Source of the DNA: a virus | Taxonomy: Duplodnaviria > Heunggongvirae > Uroviricota > Caudoviricetes | IMG/VR virus record: IMGVR_UViG_2703718817_000007 | Length of the DNA stretch: 15,704 bases | Reading direction: 5' to 3' (one strand) | Part shown: piece by piece, positions 2,181 to 10,539 of the stretch | How positions within the stretch are numbered: the stretch's first letter is position 1 | How the letters are laid out: each line of letters opens with the position of its first letter | The notes under the pieces: model-generated | Database searches by the model: none | The model's input: only the letters and a program-made list of their open reading frames with translations | Told to the model about the DNA's origin: nothing | Translations under genes and position numbers: made by a program

Positions 2181-3263
2181 ATGAAAAAATTAACAGTGGC
2201 AATTTCTGCTGTAGCTGCATCAGTACTGATGGCGATGTCTGCTCAGGCAGCTGAAATTTATAATAAAGACAGTAACAAGCTGGATCTATACGGGAAAGTT
2301 AATGCCAAGCACTACTTCTCCTCTAATGATGCAGATGATGGTGATACTACTTATGCCCGTCTTGGCTTCAAAGGTGAAACCCAAATCAACGATCAACTGA
2401 CTGGTTTCGGTCAGTGGGAATATGAATTCAAAGGCAACCGTGCTGAATCTCAAGGTTCTTCCAAAGACAAAACCCGTCTTGCATTTGCAGGCCTGAAATT
2501 TGGTGATTACGGCTCAATCGATTACGGCCGTAACTACGGTGTAGCATACGACATCGGTGCGTGGACTGACGTCCTGCCAGAATTCGGTGGTGATACCTGG
2601 ACCCAAACAGATGTGTTCATGACTGGTCGCACTACTGGTGTTGCAACTTATCGTAACAACGACTTCTTTGGTCTGGTCGATGGCCTGAACTTTGCTGCTC
2701 AGTATCAGGGTAAAAATGACCGCACTGACGTAACTGAAGCCAATGGTGATGGTTTCGGTTTCTCCACTACTTATGAGTATGAAGGATTCGGCGTGGGTGC
2801 AACCTATGCTAAATCAGATCGCACTGACGGTCAGGTCGCCTATGGTAAGAGCAAATTCAATGCCTCCGGCAAAAATGCGGAAGTATGGGCTGCAGGCCTG
2901 AAATATGATGCGAACAATATCTATCTGGCTACCACATATTCTGAAACTCAGAATATGACCGTTTTTGGTAATAACCATATTGCAAACAAAGCACAAAACT
3001 TTGAAGCAGTAGCACAATATCAGTTTGACTTCGGTCTGCGTCCATCTGTTGCTTACCTTCAGTCAAAAGGTAAAGACCTTGGTGTTCATGGTGACCGAGA
3101 CTTAGTCAAGTATGTCGATGTCGGTGCTACTTACTACTTTAATAAAAACATGTCCACTTTTGTTGATTACAAAATCAACTTAATTGACGATAGTAAGTTT
3201 ACCAAAACAGCTGGTATTGATACCGACGACATCGTCGCTGTAGGTCTGGTTTATCAGTTCTAA
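2181..3263 (+). CDS. nmpC: Outer-membrane general porin of the OmpC/OmpF family (NmpC / phage PA-2 Lc-like), intact, 360 aa
   Basis: ORF track 2181..3263. Signal peptide [23 protein letters not shown]|AEIYNK; porin hallmarks ([15 protein letters not shown].., Gly/Tyr-rich beta strands, C-terminal ..VAVGLVYQF). Sits between Q and the lysis genes in the opposite orientation, as nmpC does in DLP12. Preceded by a roughly 400-bp AT-rich region (1780-2180). Confidence 0.9.
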
Positions 3264-6223: not shown

Positions 6224-6546
6224 ACTTTCAGGCCCCTCTCATGTAACCAGTGGGCTGCACGCAGCCTGGCGTTTTCCTCACCGGCAAGCAGTGAGCGGAT
6301 AATCCCGACCGCCTCGCTGTCGTCGTCCTTCACCACGGTATGAAGCGTGATCCCCCGGGCCACACCACGCTTTATCGTGATGACGCCTTTTTTCTCCAGT
6401 GCGCGAAGATGCTCCACCGCTGCATTCACTGAACGGTATCCCAGCATGGTTGCCACCTCCTGATTGGTTGGCGGGAAGCCACGTTCTTTCTGATAAGAAA
6501 TCAGCATATCCAGCACCTGCTGCTGGCATTGAGTTAACGTCGTCAT
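6220..6546 (-). CDS. Small protein consisting of a LexA-type N-terminal winged-helix DNA-binding domain only, no S24 peptidase domain, 108 aa
   Basis: ORF track 6220..6546. LTQCQQQVLDMLISYQKERGFPPTNQEVATMLGYRSVNAAVEHLRALEKKGVITIKRGVARGITL parallels the E. coli LexA N-terminus ([55 protein letters not shown]) as recalled. Only about 35 aa follow. ATGA overlaps at both ends. Confidence 0.7.
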   Translation of the reverse strand: MTTLTQCQQQVLDMLISYQKERGFPPTNQEVATMLGYRSVNAAVEHLRALEKKGVITIKRGVARGITLHTVVKDDDSEAVGIIRSLLAGEENARLRAAHWLHERGLKV

Positions 6547-7196
6547 GCCGCCATCTCCCTGACCAGTTTTTCCGCCTGCTGGCGAACCTGCGCCAGAAAC
6601 GCCTCACCACATGCCTCAAGTTCATCGCGCCCGATGTAGCTGATTGCCGGTCCCTTCCAGGTCTTGTCGAAAACAGCAATAGCACCAGCGAAGAAAGCGC
6701 CTGTCGGCACCTGCTTCTCATCTTTCGGGATAAACCAGGCAGGCAGTTCAAAACCAATACGCCCGCGAATAAAAGCAATATGATCTGCATCTTCCGGCCA
6801 CCACACTTCGCTGGTGGCAGCTTTGATCAGGAAAACATAGCGCCCACCTTTATCACGCATGGCACTGGCATGCTTCATGATGTAACGCATGCCTGTGATG
6901 TATTGCCCCTCATGCTGACTGGCGCGGCTGTATGGGGGATTACCAAAGGCAGCACCTTTAAGCTCCGCAAGACGTTCTGACCAGTCATGCGCCAGCGCGT
7001 TGTCTTCCGCCGTGTAATACGCAGCACATTTGGTGTTATCACCGTCAGTGAACAGATCCAGAACAAACGGGCCAAACAGGGTGTTAATTCCCCAGAAAAT
7101 GTTGTCCGGCGTGCGCCACTGATCGCCCACTTCCTTCAGTTCATGGGCTGGTTTGTTCCGCAGTTCCACCAGCGCCTGGCAATATTTATTACTCAT
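6543..7196 (-). CDS. Phage DNA N6-adenine methyltransferase (Dam-like, YfdM-type), 217 aa
   Basis: ORF track 6543..7229 is the GTG-extended form; ATG at 7194-7196 overlaps the upstream TAA (TAATG). Contains the NPPY catalytic motif (AAFGNPPYS) of amino-methyltransferases. Confidence 0.8.
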   Translation of the reverse strand: MSNKYCQALVELRNKPAHELKEVGDQWRTPDNIFWGINTLFGPFVLDLFTDGDNTKCAAYYTAEDNALAHDWSERLAELKGAAFGNPPYSRASQHEGQYITGMRYIMKHASAMRDKGGRYVFLIKAATSEVWWPEDADHIAFIRGRIGFELPAWFIPKDEKQVPTGAFFAGAIAVFDKTWKGPAISYIGRDELEACGEAFLAQVRQQAEKLVREMAA

Positions 7197-7684
7197 TAAG
7201 CCCCCACGTAATTCCCTGACAGATACCACTCTTCACCCGATGCAGCGCGCTTGCTGCTTTTCCGTAAACACCGCTCACGACGCGCCAGAAAATTGTTTCG
7301 TTCTGGTTGGGAGTGGCTTTCACGGAATGCCGCCATCCACACGGTTGCAGCACGACGGTATAAGCCCCTGGACTCCAGTTCTTCAGCCTGGCGGGTCAGG
7401 CACAAAATTACCCGTGGATCGTTAGTGCCGACATAGAAATTGCGCGCAGGTCTGGTTTCACGAACTGGTTGTGGTTCCGGCTCCTGCGCTCTCTCAGTCA
7501 GGCGCGGGAAATGTCTGCGTGTATCCCCTTCACAACGGTGAGCCACACGCCCACTCTGACGTAACTTGCTTGCTGACTGCAGAACGCGCTGCCGTGAGTA
7601 GCCTGCAAAAGCATCCGCAATGTCTCCGGAAGTACACCCCGGATGGGCTTCAATGAATTTCTGAACTTCATTCAAAAGACTCAT
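7196..7684 (-). CDS. PerC-like / YfdN-like putative transcriptional activator, 162 aa
   Basis: ORF track 7196..7684. C-terminal ..EELESRGLYRRAATVWMAAFRESHSQPERNNFLARRERCLRKS resembles the PerC-family signature as recalled; length close to K-12 YfdN (164 aa). SD AGGGGG before the ATG. Confidence 0.5.
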   Translation of the reverse strand: MSLLNEVQKFIEAHPGCTSGDIADAFAGYSRQRVLQSASKLRQSGRVAHRCEGDTRRHFPRLTERAQEPEPQPVRETRPARNFYVGTNDPRVILCLTRQAEELESRGLYRRAATVWMAAFRESHSQPERNNFLARRERCLRKSSKRAASGEEWYLSGNYVGA

Positions 7685-7686
7685 GA

Positions 7687-8628
7687 TTACCCCCTGAATC
7701 CTGCCGGGATCTGGCTGTAGTCCACGTTGTCGTAACTGGCTTTGAAGTACGCGTCTTCGCGTTTTTCGGTGTACGTGCTTACGGACGGCGATAAGCGCAG
7801 GGAAAGCTCATCCCATTTTTCCCGCAGCTTCGACGGGCTGAGCACGTTACGGCACCAGAACGGATCGCGGCTGACGCGGCTGTACATCTCGCAGATTTGT
7901 TTGTGAGTACGACCATCCTGCACACACATCAGGCGAATTTCGTTTGCCCAGGCTGTCCAGTTCGGTTCTTTGGGACGAACCACCTCGCCGTCACATTCGG
8001 CAGCCTGCTCGTACAGGGCGATGATTTTTTTCCAGAGCCACTGTGCGCAGGTCAAATCATCCTGCGTCCCCCACTGGCGCTTTTTAGGGCTGAATACAAC
8101 CGCATCAGGATGGCGAGTTAAAAAATCCTGTTCAGCCGTCTGCGTGTCCGGTTGCGAAGCGTCCGGACGAGAAGGTTTTTTATCTGACGGATCATGTTTT
8201 GATTTTACTGACGGATCCCCGCCAGATTCTGACGGGTGAAAACCCGCTTTTTTGCCAGATTTCGACGCATCAAATTTTGACGGGTCAGATTTTGATGCGT
8301 CAGATTTTGACGGGTCAGAATCTGACAGTTGAGAAAATGCCGCAGCCTGAAGCTTCGCAACGTTAAGCTGATAAACATTCGACGCATTGCGGTTACCCTG
8401 GCGACGCGCCTTACGCGTTAACCAGCCTTCTGCTTCCAGCCGTGCGATAGCCGTTCTGACTGTACTCATCCCCGCGCCAATCTGGCGGGCAATGGTTTCA
8501 ATCGATGGCCAGCACACACCTTCGTCATTACTGAAATCAGCCAGGCGGGCCATAATTGCCACGCTGGATAATTTCATGCCTGACGCTGCGCAACCATCCC
8601 ATACATAGCCGGTTAATTTAGTGCTCAT
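7687..8628 (-). CDS. Replication initiator (lambda O-like organisation: N-terminal winged-helix domain, repeat-encoded linker, C-terminal domain), 313 aa
   Basis: ORF track 7687..8628. N-terminus (..SSVAIMARLADFSNDEGVCWPSIETIARQIGAGMSTVRTAIARLEAEGWL..) is a typical replication-protein HTH; the middle is a low-complexity linker (SDSDPSKSDASKSDPSKFDASKSGKK..) encoded by tandem DNA repeats; the position after cro/cII matches O. Confidence 0.7.
   Translation of the reverse strand: MSTKLTGYVWDGCAASGMKLSSVAIMARLADFSNDEGVCWPSIETIARQIGAGMSTVRTAIARLEAEGWLTRKARRQGNRNASNVYQLNVAKLQAAAFSQLSDSDPSKSDASKSDPSKFDASKSGKKAGFHPSESGGDPSVKSKHDPSDKKPSRPDASQPDTQTAEQDFLTRHPDAVVFSPKKRQWGTQDDLTCAQWLWKKIIALYEQAAECDGEVVRPKEPNWTAWANEIRLMCVQDGRTHKQICEMYSRVSRDPFWCRNVLSPSKLREKWDELSLRLSPSVSTYTEKREDAYFKASYDNVDYSQIPAGFRG
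8181..8330. repeat. Iteron-like tandem repeats (about 8 copies, 15-bp period) inside the replication initiator gene; candidate origin
   Basis: Copies at 8223-8237 cagattctgacgggt, 8256-8270 cagatttcgacgcat, 8271-8285 caaattttgacgggt, 8286-8300 cagattttgatgcgt, 8301-8315 cagattttgacgggt, 8316-8330 cagaatctgacagtt, plus degenerate copies at 8181-8217 next to an AT-rich patch (8170-8215). Confidence 0.55.
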
Positions 8629-8976
8629 GACCGACCTCTATTTCCCTGAATTTACGACGAAACTGTTCGAGCGGACTGAAGCACTCATGCTCATAGCCTT
8701 CGCGGAGGTAGATAACCCGTTGTGTTTCCGGTTCCCAACGAATGACTCTGACGGGCACTCCGTAGTGATCTTTGAACCAGCGGTTAACTTGTCGCAAAGG
8801 ACTGTCTCCTTCTGCCGGTTGAAATCCCCCACAGCCCACTCTGCAAAGCTGTGGGTTACAATTTCCCTGTCACCTGGTACATTCACTGCATAGCAATATT
8901 CCACCTTCGCTTTTCCACCCGGTACAGGAAGCGCAATCAGTTGCGAGCGACGGTAGTGTGTTGTTAAACTGTTCAT
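8618..8976 (-). CDS. Hypothetical small gene between the cII-position gene and the replication gene; apparently split across two frames (possible -1 frameshift, 1-nt indel, or two overlapping ORFs)
   Basis: Frame A (8638..8976) starts with an ATG overlapping the upstream stop (ATGA at 8973-8976) but its C-terminal half is Ser/Thr-rich and low complexity. Frame B (8618..8839) has globular-looking composition (..[49 protein letters not shown]..) and its stop overlaps the replication gene start. The frames meet at a C5/G5 run (8826-8830). Confidence 0.4.
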
Positions 8977-9542
8977 GCGTTAGTTTCTCCACAACCAGAA
9001 GCAATCGACGCCACGACGCCCGGAGCTGCACACTCGCGGGCGTCATTACTTTCTGAAATGCAAAAAATTTTGTAGACAAGTGCTGCATGCTCCTGCAGCT
9101 TCGAAATTGAGAGATACAGCTCGTCGTTAATTGCTGTCTTCTCATGCGGTTCCACTACACCGTCTTCGATTGCTGAACGAATCTGTTTTGAATAACTGCC
9201 GATCTGTTCAATGACTTCCAGCAGACGCTGGTTAATATCGGCGTTGTCCACATCCTCGACGTCAGGAAGAGACACAAAGACGCCATTTGCAGACTGCGCC
9301 ACAGCATCAGCAATGAAATGAGTGCCACCAGCACGCTGTAAAACCATTGCCCATCCCAGCGGGAAAATCTGATCGCCATCTGCACGAAGGCGGTTGAATA
9401 AAGCGTTTTCTGTTACATCGAGCCAGTCAGCCGCTTCAGCGTAACCACCCGGCAACGCCGCGATAGTTTTTCTGACAGCTTTCACGTACCACTCAGGCTG
9501 TTTTTCTATTTTCCAGTGATGCTTACCCACGATTAGCCTCAT
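8973..9542 (-). CDS. cII-position regulatory protein (HTH-containing; resembles the phage CII / CP76-type family by architecture), 189 aa
   Basis: ORF track 8973..9542. Directly downstream of cro; HTH-like segment [21 protein letters not shown]. Family assignment is from recollection of 186-CII-like proteins and is uncertain. Confidence 0.45.
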
Positions 9543-9573
9543 CGTTCTGTGGTTAAAAATTGAAAGTGTTCTG

Positions 9574-9774
9574 CTAATCTTTCGGATAGATATCCGGTCT
9601 TAAGTCAGATTTCGTAATTGCACCTGACGTGCATTGCTCAAGTTTTTTAGCCAGCACAAAACTGGCTTTTTTATAGCCATTGAAAACCAGCCGTAAGTAG
9701 CCAGGTGTTGAGCCAACTTTTCCGGCCAACTCGCCCTGCTGTTCTTTGGTTAAAGAGTCCCAATACGCTTTCAT
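9574..9774 (-). CDS. cro: Cro-like HTH repressor (YdaS/Cro-type), 66 aa
   Basis: Internal ATG at 9772-9774 of the long ORF 9574..10077, preceded by GGAGGT; product MKAYWDSLTKEQQGELAGKVGSTPGYLRLVFNGYKKASFVLAKKLEQCTSGAITKSDLRPDIYPKD. The upstream 300 nt of the long ORF is antisense to cI and is rejected. Divergent from cI across the operator region. Confidence 0.7.
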   Translation of the reverse strand: MKAYWDSLTKEQQGELAGKVGSTPGYLRLVFNGYKKASFVLAKKLEQCTSGAITKSDLRPDIYPKD

Positions 9775-9777
9775 ACA

Positions 9778-9864
9778 ATATGTACCTCCGGTATACATAT
9801 TACATGATTGAAATGAACCTTCAAGATACTTGTACCTTAACGGTACAAGGGTTTTAATTTCGTT
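9778..9864. promoter_or_regulatory. Immunity-switch operator/promoter region (OR): palindromic operators with divergent pR-like and pRM-like promoters
   Basis: Perfect palindrome CTTGTACC-N5-GGTACAAG at 9829-9849; imperfect ATATGTACC-tcc-GGTATACATAT at 9778-9800. Minus-strand promoter TTGAAG (9819-9824) -16- TAATAT (9797-9802) feeds cro. On the plus strand a TTTAAT-like -10 at 9852-9858 sits about 7 nt before the cI ATG, suggesting a leaderless cI mRNA. Confidence 0.6.
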
Positions 9865-10539
9865 ATGAAAACAATCCATGACATCCGGCGGTCTAACGCC
9901 AGAAAACTGAGAGATGGTGTTGGCGGGAATTCTTCCTTTGCCACTATGATTGATCGCGAGCCAACCCAGACCAGCAGGTTTATGGGAGATGGTGCTACTA
10001 AAAATATCGGTGACAGCATGGCACGACACATCGAAAAATGTTTCGACCTGCCTGTCGGATGGCTCGATCAAGAACACCAGACAACGAACATCACAAAAAA
10101 ACCTGATGTTTCAATCACTAATAAACAAATCACATTAGTCCCTGTCATATCATGGGTACAGGCCGGAGCATGGAAAGAAGTTGGATATTCTGAGGTTGAT
10201 TTGAGCACAGCAGAAACGTATCCCTGCCCTGTACCCTGTGGGGAAATGACTTATATCTTGCGGGTGATAGGTGATTCAATGATTGATGAGTACCGCCCGG
10301 GAGACATGATTTTTGTCGATCCTGAAGTACCTGCCTGCCACGGTGACGACGTTATTGCATTGATGCACGATACAGGTGAAACCACCTTCAAAAGGTTGAT
10401 AGAAGATGGGACACAGCGTTATCTCAAAGCGTTAAACCCAAACTGGCCTGAGCCTTACATTAAGATCAACGGTAATTGCTCTATAATTGGAACTGTGATT
10501 TTCTCAGGAAAACCAAGAAGATACAAAATCAAAGCCTAA
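9865..10539 (+). CDS. cI: CI-type prophage repressor (N-terminal HTH plus C-terminal LexA-like S24 peptidase domain), 224 aa
   Basis: ORF track 9865..10539, ATG start. C-terminal domain has GDSM (Ser nucleophile), ..TFKRLI.. (Lys) and VQAG linker motifs as in lambda cI/LexA. Confidence 0.85.
   Translation: MKTIHDIRRSNARKLRDGVGGNSSFATMIDREPTQTSRFMGDGATKNIGDSMARHIEKCFDLPVGWLDQEHQTTNITKKPDVSITNKQITLVPVISWVQAGAWKEVGYSEVDLSTAETYPCPVPCGEMTYILRVIGDSMIDEYRPGDMIFVDPEVPACHGDDVIALMHDTGETTFKRLIEDGTQRYLKALNPNWPEPYIKINGNCSIIGTVIFSGKPRRYKIKA

Follow-up and report, generated by a model that had tools for sequence, protein, structure and literature searches.

A 15-bp Repeat Array Within the O-Family Initiator Gene of an SfII/SfIV-Like Lambdoid Phage, a Probable Replication Origin

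The replication origin of lambdoid phages is situated in the middle of gene O and consists of iterons and an AT-rich tract; in lambda the AT-rich tract follows the iterons (PMC7466680). Binding of the initiator to the lambda and phi80 sites is experimentally established, and silent mutations in the iterons abolish plasmid replication (PMC7466680). The number of iterons varies among lambdoid phages, with four in lambda and six in Stx phages (PMC7466680). The four annotated lambda iterons are found at nt 349–433 of gene O and are 18-bp sites whose starts are 20–24 bp apart. A search for published origin work on the phage family considered here (SfIV- and yfdO-related) returned no specific paper. 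Reported here is a repeat array that is located inside the initiator gene of a member of this family and has the features of a lambda-type origin in part.

The DNA analyzed, termed the window, is a 15,704-nt stretch of a virus of the Caudoviricetes (IMG/VR record IMGVR_UViG_2703718817_000007). It represents a lambdoid temperate phage, SfII/SfIV-like. In the region of the initiator gene, identity is 100% to Escherichia phage PhiR49_1 and approximately 99% to Shigella phages SfII and SfIV. In the annotated record of the identical PhiR49_1, the early region is lambdoid and situated on the minus strand, and the gene corresponding to 7687–8628 is annotated as 'DNA replication protein O'. The twin record places cI on the plus strand at 9865–10539 and, on the minus strand, cro, a cII-like gene at 8973–9542 and a ymfM-like gene at 8638–8976, which precedes the initiator gene. 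The first gene after the initiator is YfdN/PerC-like (7196–7684, minus strand), followed by a Dam methylase gene (6543–7229, minus strand). No P-like, DnaC-like or helicase gene is found after the initiator gene in the twin annotation or in the Pfam and phrog matches of the neighboring genes. A sigma-70 promoter scan of positions 7400–10000 gave no hits, and the terminator-like matches in the scan of this region are weak. Searches for other host protein sites gave no IHF sites by exact match and, for DnaA boxes with one mismatch or less, three one-mismatch sites only, none of which is in the repeat region.

The initiator gene (7687–8628, minus strand) carries a 313 amino acid open reading frame, whose assignment to the O family by its C-terminal domain draws on the translation, the twin annotation and phrog_391. 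The protein matches phrog_391, 'replication initiation O-like', at 1.2e-135. The C-terminal domain (7687–8149, minus strand) shows similarity by BLASTP to lambda O (6e-26) and to phi80 gp15 (3e-25). Searches of Pfam and NCBIfam yielded no family for this domain; its identity comes from the direct BLASTP comparison with lambda O. Both the phrog match and the C-terminal homology uphold the first-pass annotation, which had called the gene a replication initiator. Relatives of the protein are numerous, with 2367 protein clusters matched, but most of these are annotated just as 'helix-turn-helix domain-containing protein'.

The N-terminal part of the protein is of a different type. A winged-helix DNA-binding domain, amino acid positions 1–95 (8344–8628, minus strand), is recognized by Pfam HTH_36 and by AlphaFold and is the presumed reader of the repeats. 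HTH_36 is found at positions 23–70 (4e-11). In the AlphaFold model, which was built on an alignment of 30 sequences, the N-terminus shows helices at 3–66, a two-strand wing at 70–88 and a helix at 90–98, such that the winged helix comprises positions 1–98. Positions 103–161 are of low confidence (pLDDT <50), and a helical C-terminal domain is found at positions 162–280. The linker between the two domains, positions 103–161, is thus predicted by the model to be disordered. PDB searches by sequence and by fold with the N-terminal domain retrieved no initiator structure, just winged helices of the generic MarR/ArsR type. Lambda O and phi80 gp15 both match PF04492 (Phage_rep_O), whereas the window protein does not and displays HTH_36 instead. 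Judged by its sequence, the protein is an O-family initiator that carries a non-lambda DNA-binding domain. In lambda O, P is bound through the C-terminal domain; the C-terminal domain of the window protein presumably recruits the helicase machinery of the host.

The repeats are found between the segments coding for these two domains. Five 15-bp units, the candidate iterons, are arranged head-to-tail at 8254–8326 (minus strand), with 13-mers that start at 8254, 8269, 8284, 8299 and 8314. Tandem Repeats Finder shows 4.3 copies of period 15 at 8256–8319 with 81% matches and a score of 86, and at the same positions a period of 30 with 88% matches and a score of 100. The 13-mer GTCAGATTTTGAC, with three mismatches or less, has 18 matches in the window where 5.5 are expected, a count not attained in any of 200 shuffles. 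The plus-strand matches in the region are at 8221, 8254, 8269, 8284, 8299 and 8314. The repeats are real, and the repeat search gives six in-register copies with spacings of 33, 15, 15, 15 and 15. In addition, two half-copies that share CTGACGGATC and are 87% alike are found at 8179–8193 and 8203–8217. The first-pass annotation had described five tight and three degenerate copies, and this count agrees with five contiguous copies, one isolated copy and two half-copies.

On the coding strand the unit reads G TCA AAA TCT GAC nn. Read as TCA AAA TCT GAC NNN it translates to S-K-S-D-(P/A), in accord with the S/P-K-S-D pentapeptides reported previously. At the nucleotide level the unit is a near-palindrome, GTCA-N5-TGAC, of which there are six full copies. 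The half-sites within each palindromic unit are approximately 7 bp apart, and the copy at 8314–8326 (GTCAGAATCTGAC) is a perfect 6+1+6 palindrome. The isolated copy at 8221–8233 also has dyad symmetry; it was found by the 13-mer search, reads GTCAGAATCTGGC on the minus strand and contains a perfect 5+1+5 core, CAGA-A-TCTG, plus flanks. The array is separated from the isolated copy by a spacer at 8234–8253 (minus strand), AAAAAAGCGGGTTTTCACCC on the coding strand, which is conserved in the alignment of 70 loci with a nucleotide conservation of 0.5–0.9 per position. The plus strand of the spacer region displays a weak terminator-like hairpin at 8233–8246. The repeats encode amino acid positions 100–150, within the linker between the winged helix (1–98) and the C-terminal domain (162–280). 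The earlier assignment of the repeats to the stretch of the gene that codes for the linker thus fits the low-confidence segment of the AlphaFold model (103–161).

A segment such as this could in principle be a low-complexity protein linker and nothing else, an S-K-S-D-x tether made by slippage in which the DNA repeats are a by-product. The predicted disorder of the segment (pLDDT <50, positions 103–161) and the conserved peptide pattern are both in keeping with such a tether. The point was addressed with a set of 80 loci, taken from prophages of different bacterial species and having N-terminal domains 52–100% identical to that of the window; 74 of these were usable in most tests and 69–70 in tests anchored on a conserved motif. 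The repeat units inside one locus are non-independent observations, and the unit counts below are to be read as such. The linker type is the same in all usable copies. Codon choice within the linker is very different from that in the rest of the same genes: TCA or TCT makes up 85% of Ser codons in the linker vs 26% elsewhere, AAA 97% vs 61% of Lys codons, and GTA 73% vs 12% of Val codons. The choice is also specific to position, the first Ser of S-x-S units being TCA in 274 of 301 and the second TCT in 236 of 301. These codons are frozen across species (TCA then TCT, AAA at 97%, GTA at 73%), which a tether under selection as peptide does not account for.

Conservation by codon position leads to the same result. 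In a conserved 96-nt stretch of the linker around the isolated copy, third positions have a conservation of 0.78 vs 0.80 for first and second positions, and are thus conserved like the others. In the N-terminal domain the corresponding values are 0.55 and 0.89. The isolated copy is the most conserved copy in the family, and its sequence TCAGAATCTGG is conserved at ≥90% at nearly every position, third positions included. The core TCAAAATCTGA, with two mismatches or less, reaches a density of 1.87 per 100 nt in the linker vs 0.013 elsewhere, i.e. it is approximately 140 times denser, and 237 of 302 pairs of neighboring core copies in the relatives have a spacing of 15 nt. The 3-nt spacer codon varies freely both in base and in the amino acid encoded (P, A, T, G, V), but the core nucleotides do not, and this speaks against a peptide-only role. 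The core (C/T)CA(G/A)A(A/T)TCTG remains unchanged down to a domain identity of 52%; comparison of the recognition helix with the repeat core gave no informative co-variation within the family.

A further observation comes from loci in which the reading frame differs. At the isolated copy, the sequence TTGACCC(T/G)TCAGAATCTG is retained off-frame, where it encodes L-T-L-Q-N-L or F-T-R-Q-N-L instead of F-H-P-S-E-S-G. Three diverged sequences carry TCAGAATCTG in this form as a result of a compensated frameshift: phiP27, Stx2_KH16-043 and the Citrobacter prophage L160. A sequencing error was considered for the phiP27 motif and was rejected, as two independent diverged records share the shift. The motif is kept although the peptide is wholly changed, and this also goes against a tether selected as protein only. 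Thus the frozen synonymous sites and the survival of the motif through a change of frame indicate that the DNA itself is under selection.

Copy number is variable. All copies returned by a viral-contig scan have an N-terminal domain 100% identical to that of the window, and these were used just for population polymorphism. In six of 79 such copies the array length is changed, each time by one or two complete 15-bp units, and the point changes in these near-identical copies are mostly found in the 3-nt spacer codon. Relatives farther off show three to eight recognizable copies. The array thus expands and contracts by slippage with retention of the reading frame, in the way that the iteron number varies among lambdoid phages. 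A change by whole units among close and distant relatives is also what a slippage-made tether predicts. Given the codon and frame evidence, however, the protein-only reading is largely refuted and is considered very unlikely. The repeats are under selection, and conserved, at the level of the DNA and not of the protein. The earlier proposal that the repeats do double duty holds up, since they encode the linker and, by the frozen synonymous sites and the off-frame motif, are constrained at the DNA level as well. The locus illustrates cleanly how a single sequence is selected on two levels, for the protein linker that it encodes and for the site that it forms in the DNA.

Adjacent to the isolated copy there is an AT-rich, easily melted patch at 8176–8217, which is a candidate unwinding element. 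It contains the two half-copies, here delimited as 8182–8194 and 8206–8218, and GATC sites at 8190 and 8214 bracket it. With an A+T content of 74%, the segment 8177–8207 is less stable than any other 30-mer of the gene, yet shows a z of only 1.8 when compared with the whole window. Moron regions of the window are far more AT-rich than 8177–8207. The position of the patch is conserved: in 59 of 69 diverged loci (86%) the 30-mer of lowest stability within the gene begins 0–30 nt past the same anchor. Two GATC sites are found at the patch in 54 of 69 loci, where 0.19 are expected per 60 nt. The patch may be an unwinding element of small size that might respond to Dam methylation. The first-pass annotation had included an AT-rich patch in the layout, and such a patch does exist (74% A+T, at a conserved position), but it is modest (z = 1.8), far weaker than that of lambda and also much shorter.

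The initiator gene is mosaic. Phage mEp460_4F5 and the window share 96.9% identity over 7000–8183 and 98.6% over 8623–9043, but are unrelated over 8184–8622. The segment exchanged is exactly the N-terminal domain plus the repeats, and its edge at 8184 is within three bases of 8181, where the repeat region had originally been taken to begin. In mEp460_4F5 the replacement consists of an unrelated domain with four to five repeats of its own (core CATTTTGACC), mostly at 23–24-bp spacing, and the cassette also holds three AT-rich 12-bp repeats. The reverse situation is found in phiNP, Flotzy and YeP1, which match the window only from 8146–8173 to approximately 8627 and have a Phg_2220_C-type C-terminus. 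The cassette of the window is found fused to at least three different C-terminal domains, including the Phg_2220_C-type and the phiP27-type. The DNA-binding domain and the repeats travel as one cassette. The junction between this specificity cassette and the C-terminal module is situated at 8150–8184 (minus strand) by the mosaic comparison. Each domain type thus has its own repeats in the same place, the pattern predicted for a protein paired with cognate sites.

As the breakpoints adjoin the repeat region (8146–8184), it could be asked if the repeats are mainly a recombination joint for the exchange of initiator modules among lambdoid phages. The breakpoints are, however, downstream of the repeats, in a shared S-R-P-D-A-S-Q-P junction, and the repeats of the alternative cassette are unrelated and so do not provide shared homology. 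A role mainly as recombination joint is for these reasons extremely improbable.

Selection at the level of nucleic acid is evident from the synonymous and off-frame conservation but does not by itself specify a function. The repeats could be a DNA- or RNA-level cis element other than an origin, such as a site of initiator autoregulation or copy control, a set of sites for another protein (e.g. SeqA at the GATC pair), or a structure in the initiator mRNA that tunes translation or stability. The weakness of the AT-rich patch and the presence of two conserved GATC sites are compatible with such an element, and the single-strand fold of the region is better than that of shuffled sequences, with z = −4.8 as DNA and −5.8 as RNA. 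Folding potential, however, is automatic for tandem palindromic units. A search of Rfam at a permissive threshold gave a single match, mir-5880, whose 30.7 bits fall short of the gathering score of 97; this match was rejected as an artefact of the palindromic repeats. The repeats are exchanged together with the DNA-binding domain, and each type has its own sequence and period, as would suit cognate binding sites but not an mRNA fold. Position and order are equal to those of the proven lambda and phi80 origins, and no second repeat or AT-rich candidate origin is seen among the replication genes. A cis element with a function other than that of an origin is on this evidence unlikely.

The explanation that best accounts for the data is that the repeats are the iterons of a phage origin and are situated, like those of lambda, where the initiator gene codes for the linker; the probability of this is put at approximately 75%. 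Binding of the repeats by the initiator, unwinding of the patch, origin activity and recruitment of the helicase without P are steps that we infer. Transcription of the early rightward operon (cro, cII-like, ymfM-like, initiator) would lead to synthesis of the initiator, and the N-terminal winged helix would bind the five 15-bp units (8254–8326) and the isolated palindromic copy (8221–8233). The resulting nucleoprotein complex may strain the adjacent GATC-flanked patch at 8176–8217 such that the patch melts, and the lambda-O-type C-terminal domain would then recruit the helicase machinery of the host. The disordered S-K-S-D-x linker is encoded by the repeat bases too, so that the sequence is read twice.

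If the repeats are iterons, a likely origin is now placed for a very common enterobacterial prophage family. During infection, the Lamassu system shows enrichment at the iterons of lambda (PMC12663957). Since such origins are sensed by some defence systems, the position of the origin in SfII/SfIV-like and related prophages would be of practical use.

When the locus is compared with lambda, the layout is lambda-like. In both, the origin or candidate origin is found in the middle of the initiator gene, and the order is DNA-binding domain, direct repeats with dyad symmetry, AT-rich stretch and C-terminal domain. Along the direction of transcription this order is represented here by the domain at 8628–8344, the repeats at 8326–8221, the AT patch at 8217–8176 and then the C-terminal domain. 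The two also share transcription in the early rightward operon, a homologous C-terminal domain (6e-26) and repeats that code for the linker. The N-terminal domain of lambda O is of the Phage_rep_O type and a P gene is situated beside O, whereas the window has an HTH_36-type winged helix and is without a P gene. The AT-rich tract of lambda is long and strongly AT-rich. The window displays five contiguous 15-bp units plus an isolated copy, and a modest AT patch of approximately 30–40 bp with two GATC sites. The layout had been described previously as the same as that of the lambda origin inside O; the order of parts is indeed the same, but the likeness does not extend to the weaker AT patch or to the N-terminal domain, which is HTH_36 and not Phage_rep_O.

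Phi80 shows a similar relationship. There are four annotated gp15-binding sites inside gene 15, in the same relative place, and the C-terminal domains are homologous (3e-25). The differences are a spacing of 20–21 bp, a Phage_rep_O N-terminal domain, and a P-like gene 14 as the next gene.

The O protein of Stx phage 24B has an HTH_36 winged helix, with 43% identity to that of the window over amino acid positions 25–94, and its gene also carries in-gene direct repeats with internal dyad symmetry right after the winged helix. In 24B there are three GC-rich repeats (GGGGTGGGGCAGGAGCTGCCC) that are 21–24 bp apart, the C-terminal part shows no relationship to that of the window, and the next gene is a P gene of the helicase type. 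In mEp460_4F5 the gene is annotated as 'Primosomal protein I'. Its C-terminal domain and the flanking genes are 97–99% identical to those of the window and repeats are present at the same end of the cassette, but the N-terminal domain is unrelated and has no Pfam match.

The most distinct feature is the period. The first-pass annotation had described 15 bp as shorter than the period in lambda, and this is so not only with respect to lambda (20–24 bp) but to phi80 (20–21 bp), 24B (21–24 bp) and mEp460_4F5 (23 bp) as well. The repeats of these four are spaced at about two helical turns, and the 15-bp period does not follow this lambda-type spacing. Since 15 bp is approximately 1.4 helical turns, successive sites would be on nearly opposite faces of the helix. 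Most likely this is an ordinary lambda-style layout with an unusually tight spacing of the repeats. A more far-reaching proposal is that the gap-free array forms an origin complex unlike the lambda O-some, with initiators on alternating faces or in a continuous filament, a minimal Dam-gated patch and loading of the host helicase without P; this is doubtful. As a natural counterpart to lambda, the locus lends itself to asking whether the helical phasing of iterons matters and in what way an O-type initiator functions in the absence of P.

Origins inside initiator genes are also found elsewhere, e.g. SPP1 oriL in gene 38, P1 oriL in repL, and that of lactococcal TP901-1. In SPP1, P1 and TP901-1 the proteins and the repeat sequences are unrelated to those described here, but the principle is the same, with binding repeats situated inside the initiator's own gene.

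Two GATC sites (8190–8193 and 8214–8217) bracket the AT-rich patch within the initiator gene. The pair is kept in relatives, e.g. two sites are found by the patch in 54 of the 69 diverged loci that carry related initiator genes, and at least one is present in all 69, compared with an expectation of 0.19 per 60 nt. The phage also encodes its own Dam-type methylase (6543–7229, minus strand), the gene of which lies two genes downstream of the initiator. Together, the conserved GATC pair and the phage-encoded methylase suggest that initiation is controlled by methylation or SeqA.

A terminator-like hairpin with a T-run (CGGGTGAAAACCCG CTTTTTTGCC) is found at 8233–8246 on the plus strand, antisense to the initiator gene. 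It is situated within the spacer that separates the array of five 15-bp units from the isolated palindromic copy, and its stem is conserved only in part among relatives. Another 15-bp tandem repeat (GAAAAGGATTAGATA), present in 2.3 copies, is found at 2019–2052, just upstream of an OmpD-like porin gene (2181–3263, plus strand). The surrounding stretch, 1900–2200, is very AT-rich, and DNA stability reaches its minimum for the whole window there.

The alternative cassette of phage mEp460_4F5 displays three AT-rich 12-bp tandem repeats (TATTCTCTGTAG; positions 1993–2028 of record L003), placed between its 23-bp repeats and the cassette junction and translated as T-E-N/I-T. These are a candidate unwinding element of that cassette.

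Among the loci compared, near-identical enterobacterial-type initiator cassettes are found on contigs labelled Vagococcus, Chryseobacterium, Martelella, and Pseudomonas lundensis (L097, L124, L128, and L161), which probably represent contamination or mislabelled assemblies and not true host range. Two E. coli chromosomal loci, L142 and L169, appear to be prophages that have decayed or been rearranged: their initiator gene is cut off after amino acid 79 and passes into unrelated sequence that resembles a large terminase.

Directly after the initiator, in the place occupied by P in lambda, is a gene for a 162 aa YfdN-like protein (7196–7684, minus strand). The N-terminal part of the protein matches phrog_23071, a family without known function, and the C-terminal part a PerC/ANR-type domain. 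Phage KpF5 shares the initiator C-terminal domain of the window but is without the YfdN-like gene, thus the protein is probably not an obligatory loader. Motifs similar to the most conserved repeat copy of the window, GTCAGAATCTGGCGGGGATCC (8213–8233, minus strand), are present in lambda (GTCAGAGAATTCTGGCGAATCC, L172 1162–1186) and phi80 (GTCCGAGAATTCTGACGAATCC, L174 6782–6806), in both cases just beyond the AT-rich tract. Protein alignment places them at positions not homologous to that of GTCAGAATCTGGCGGGGATCC. The likeness may be due to chance or may reflect a common origin element.
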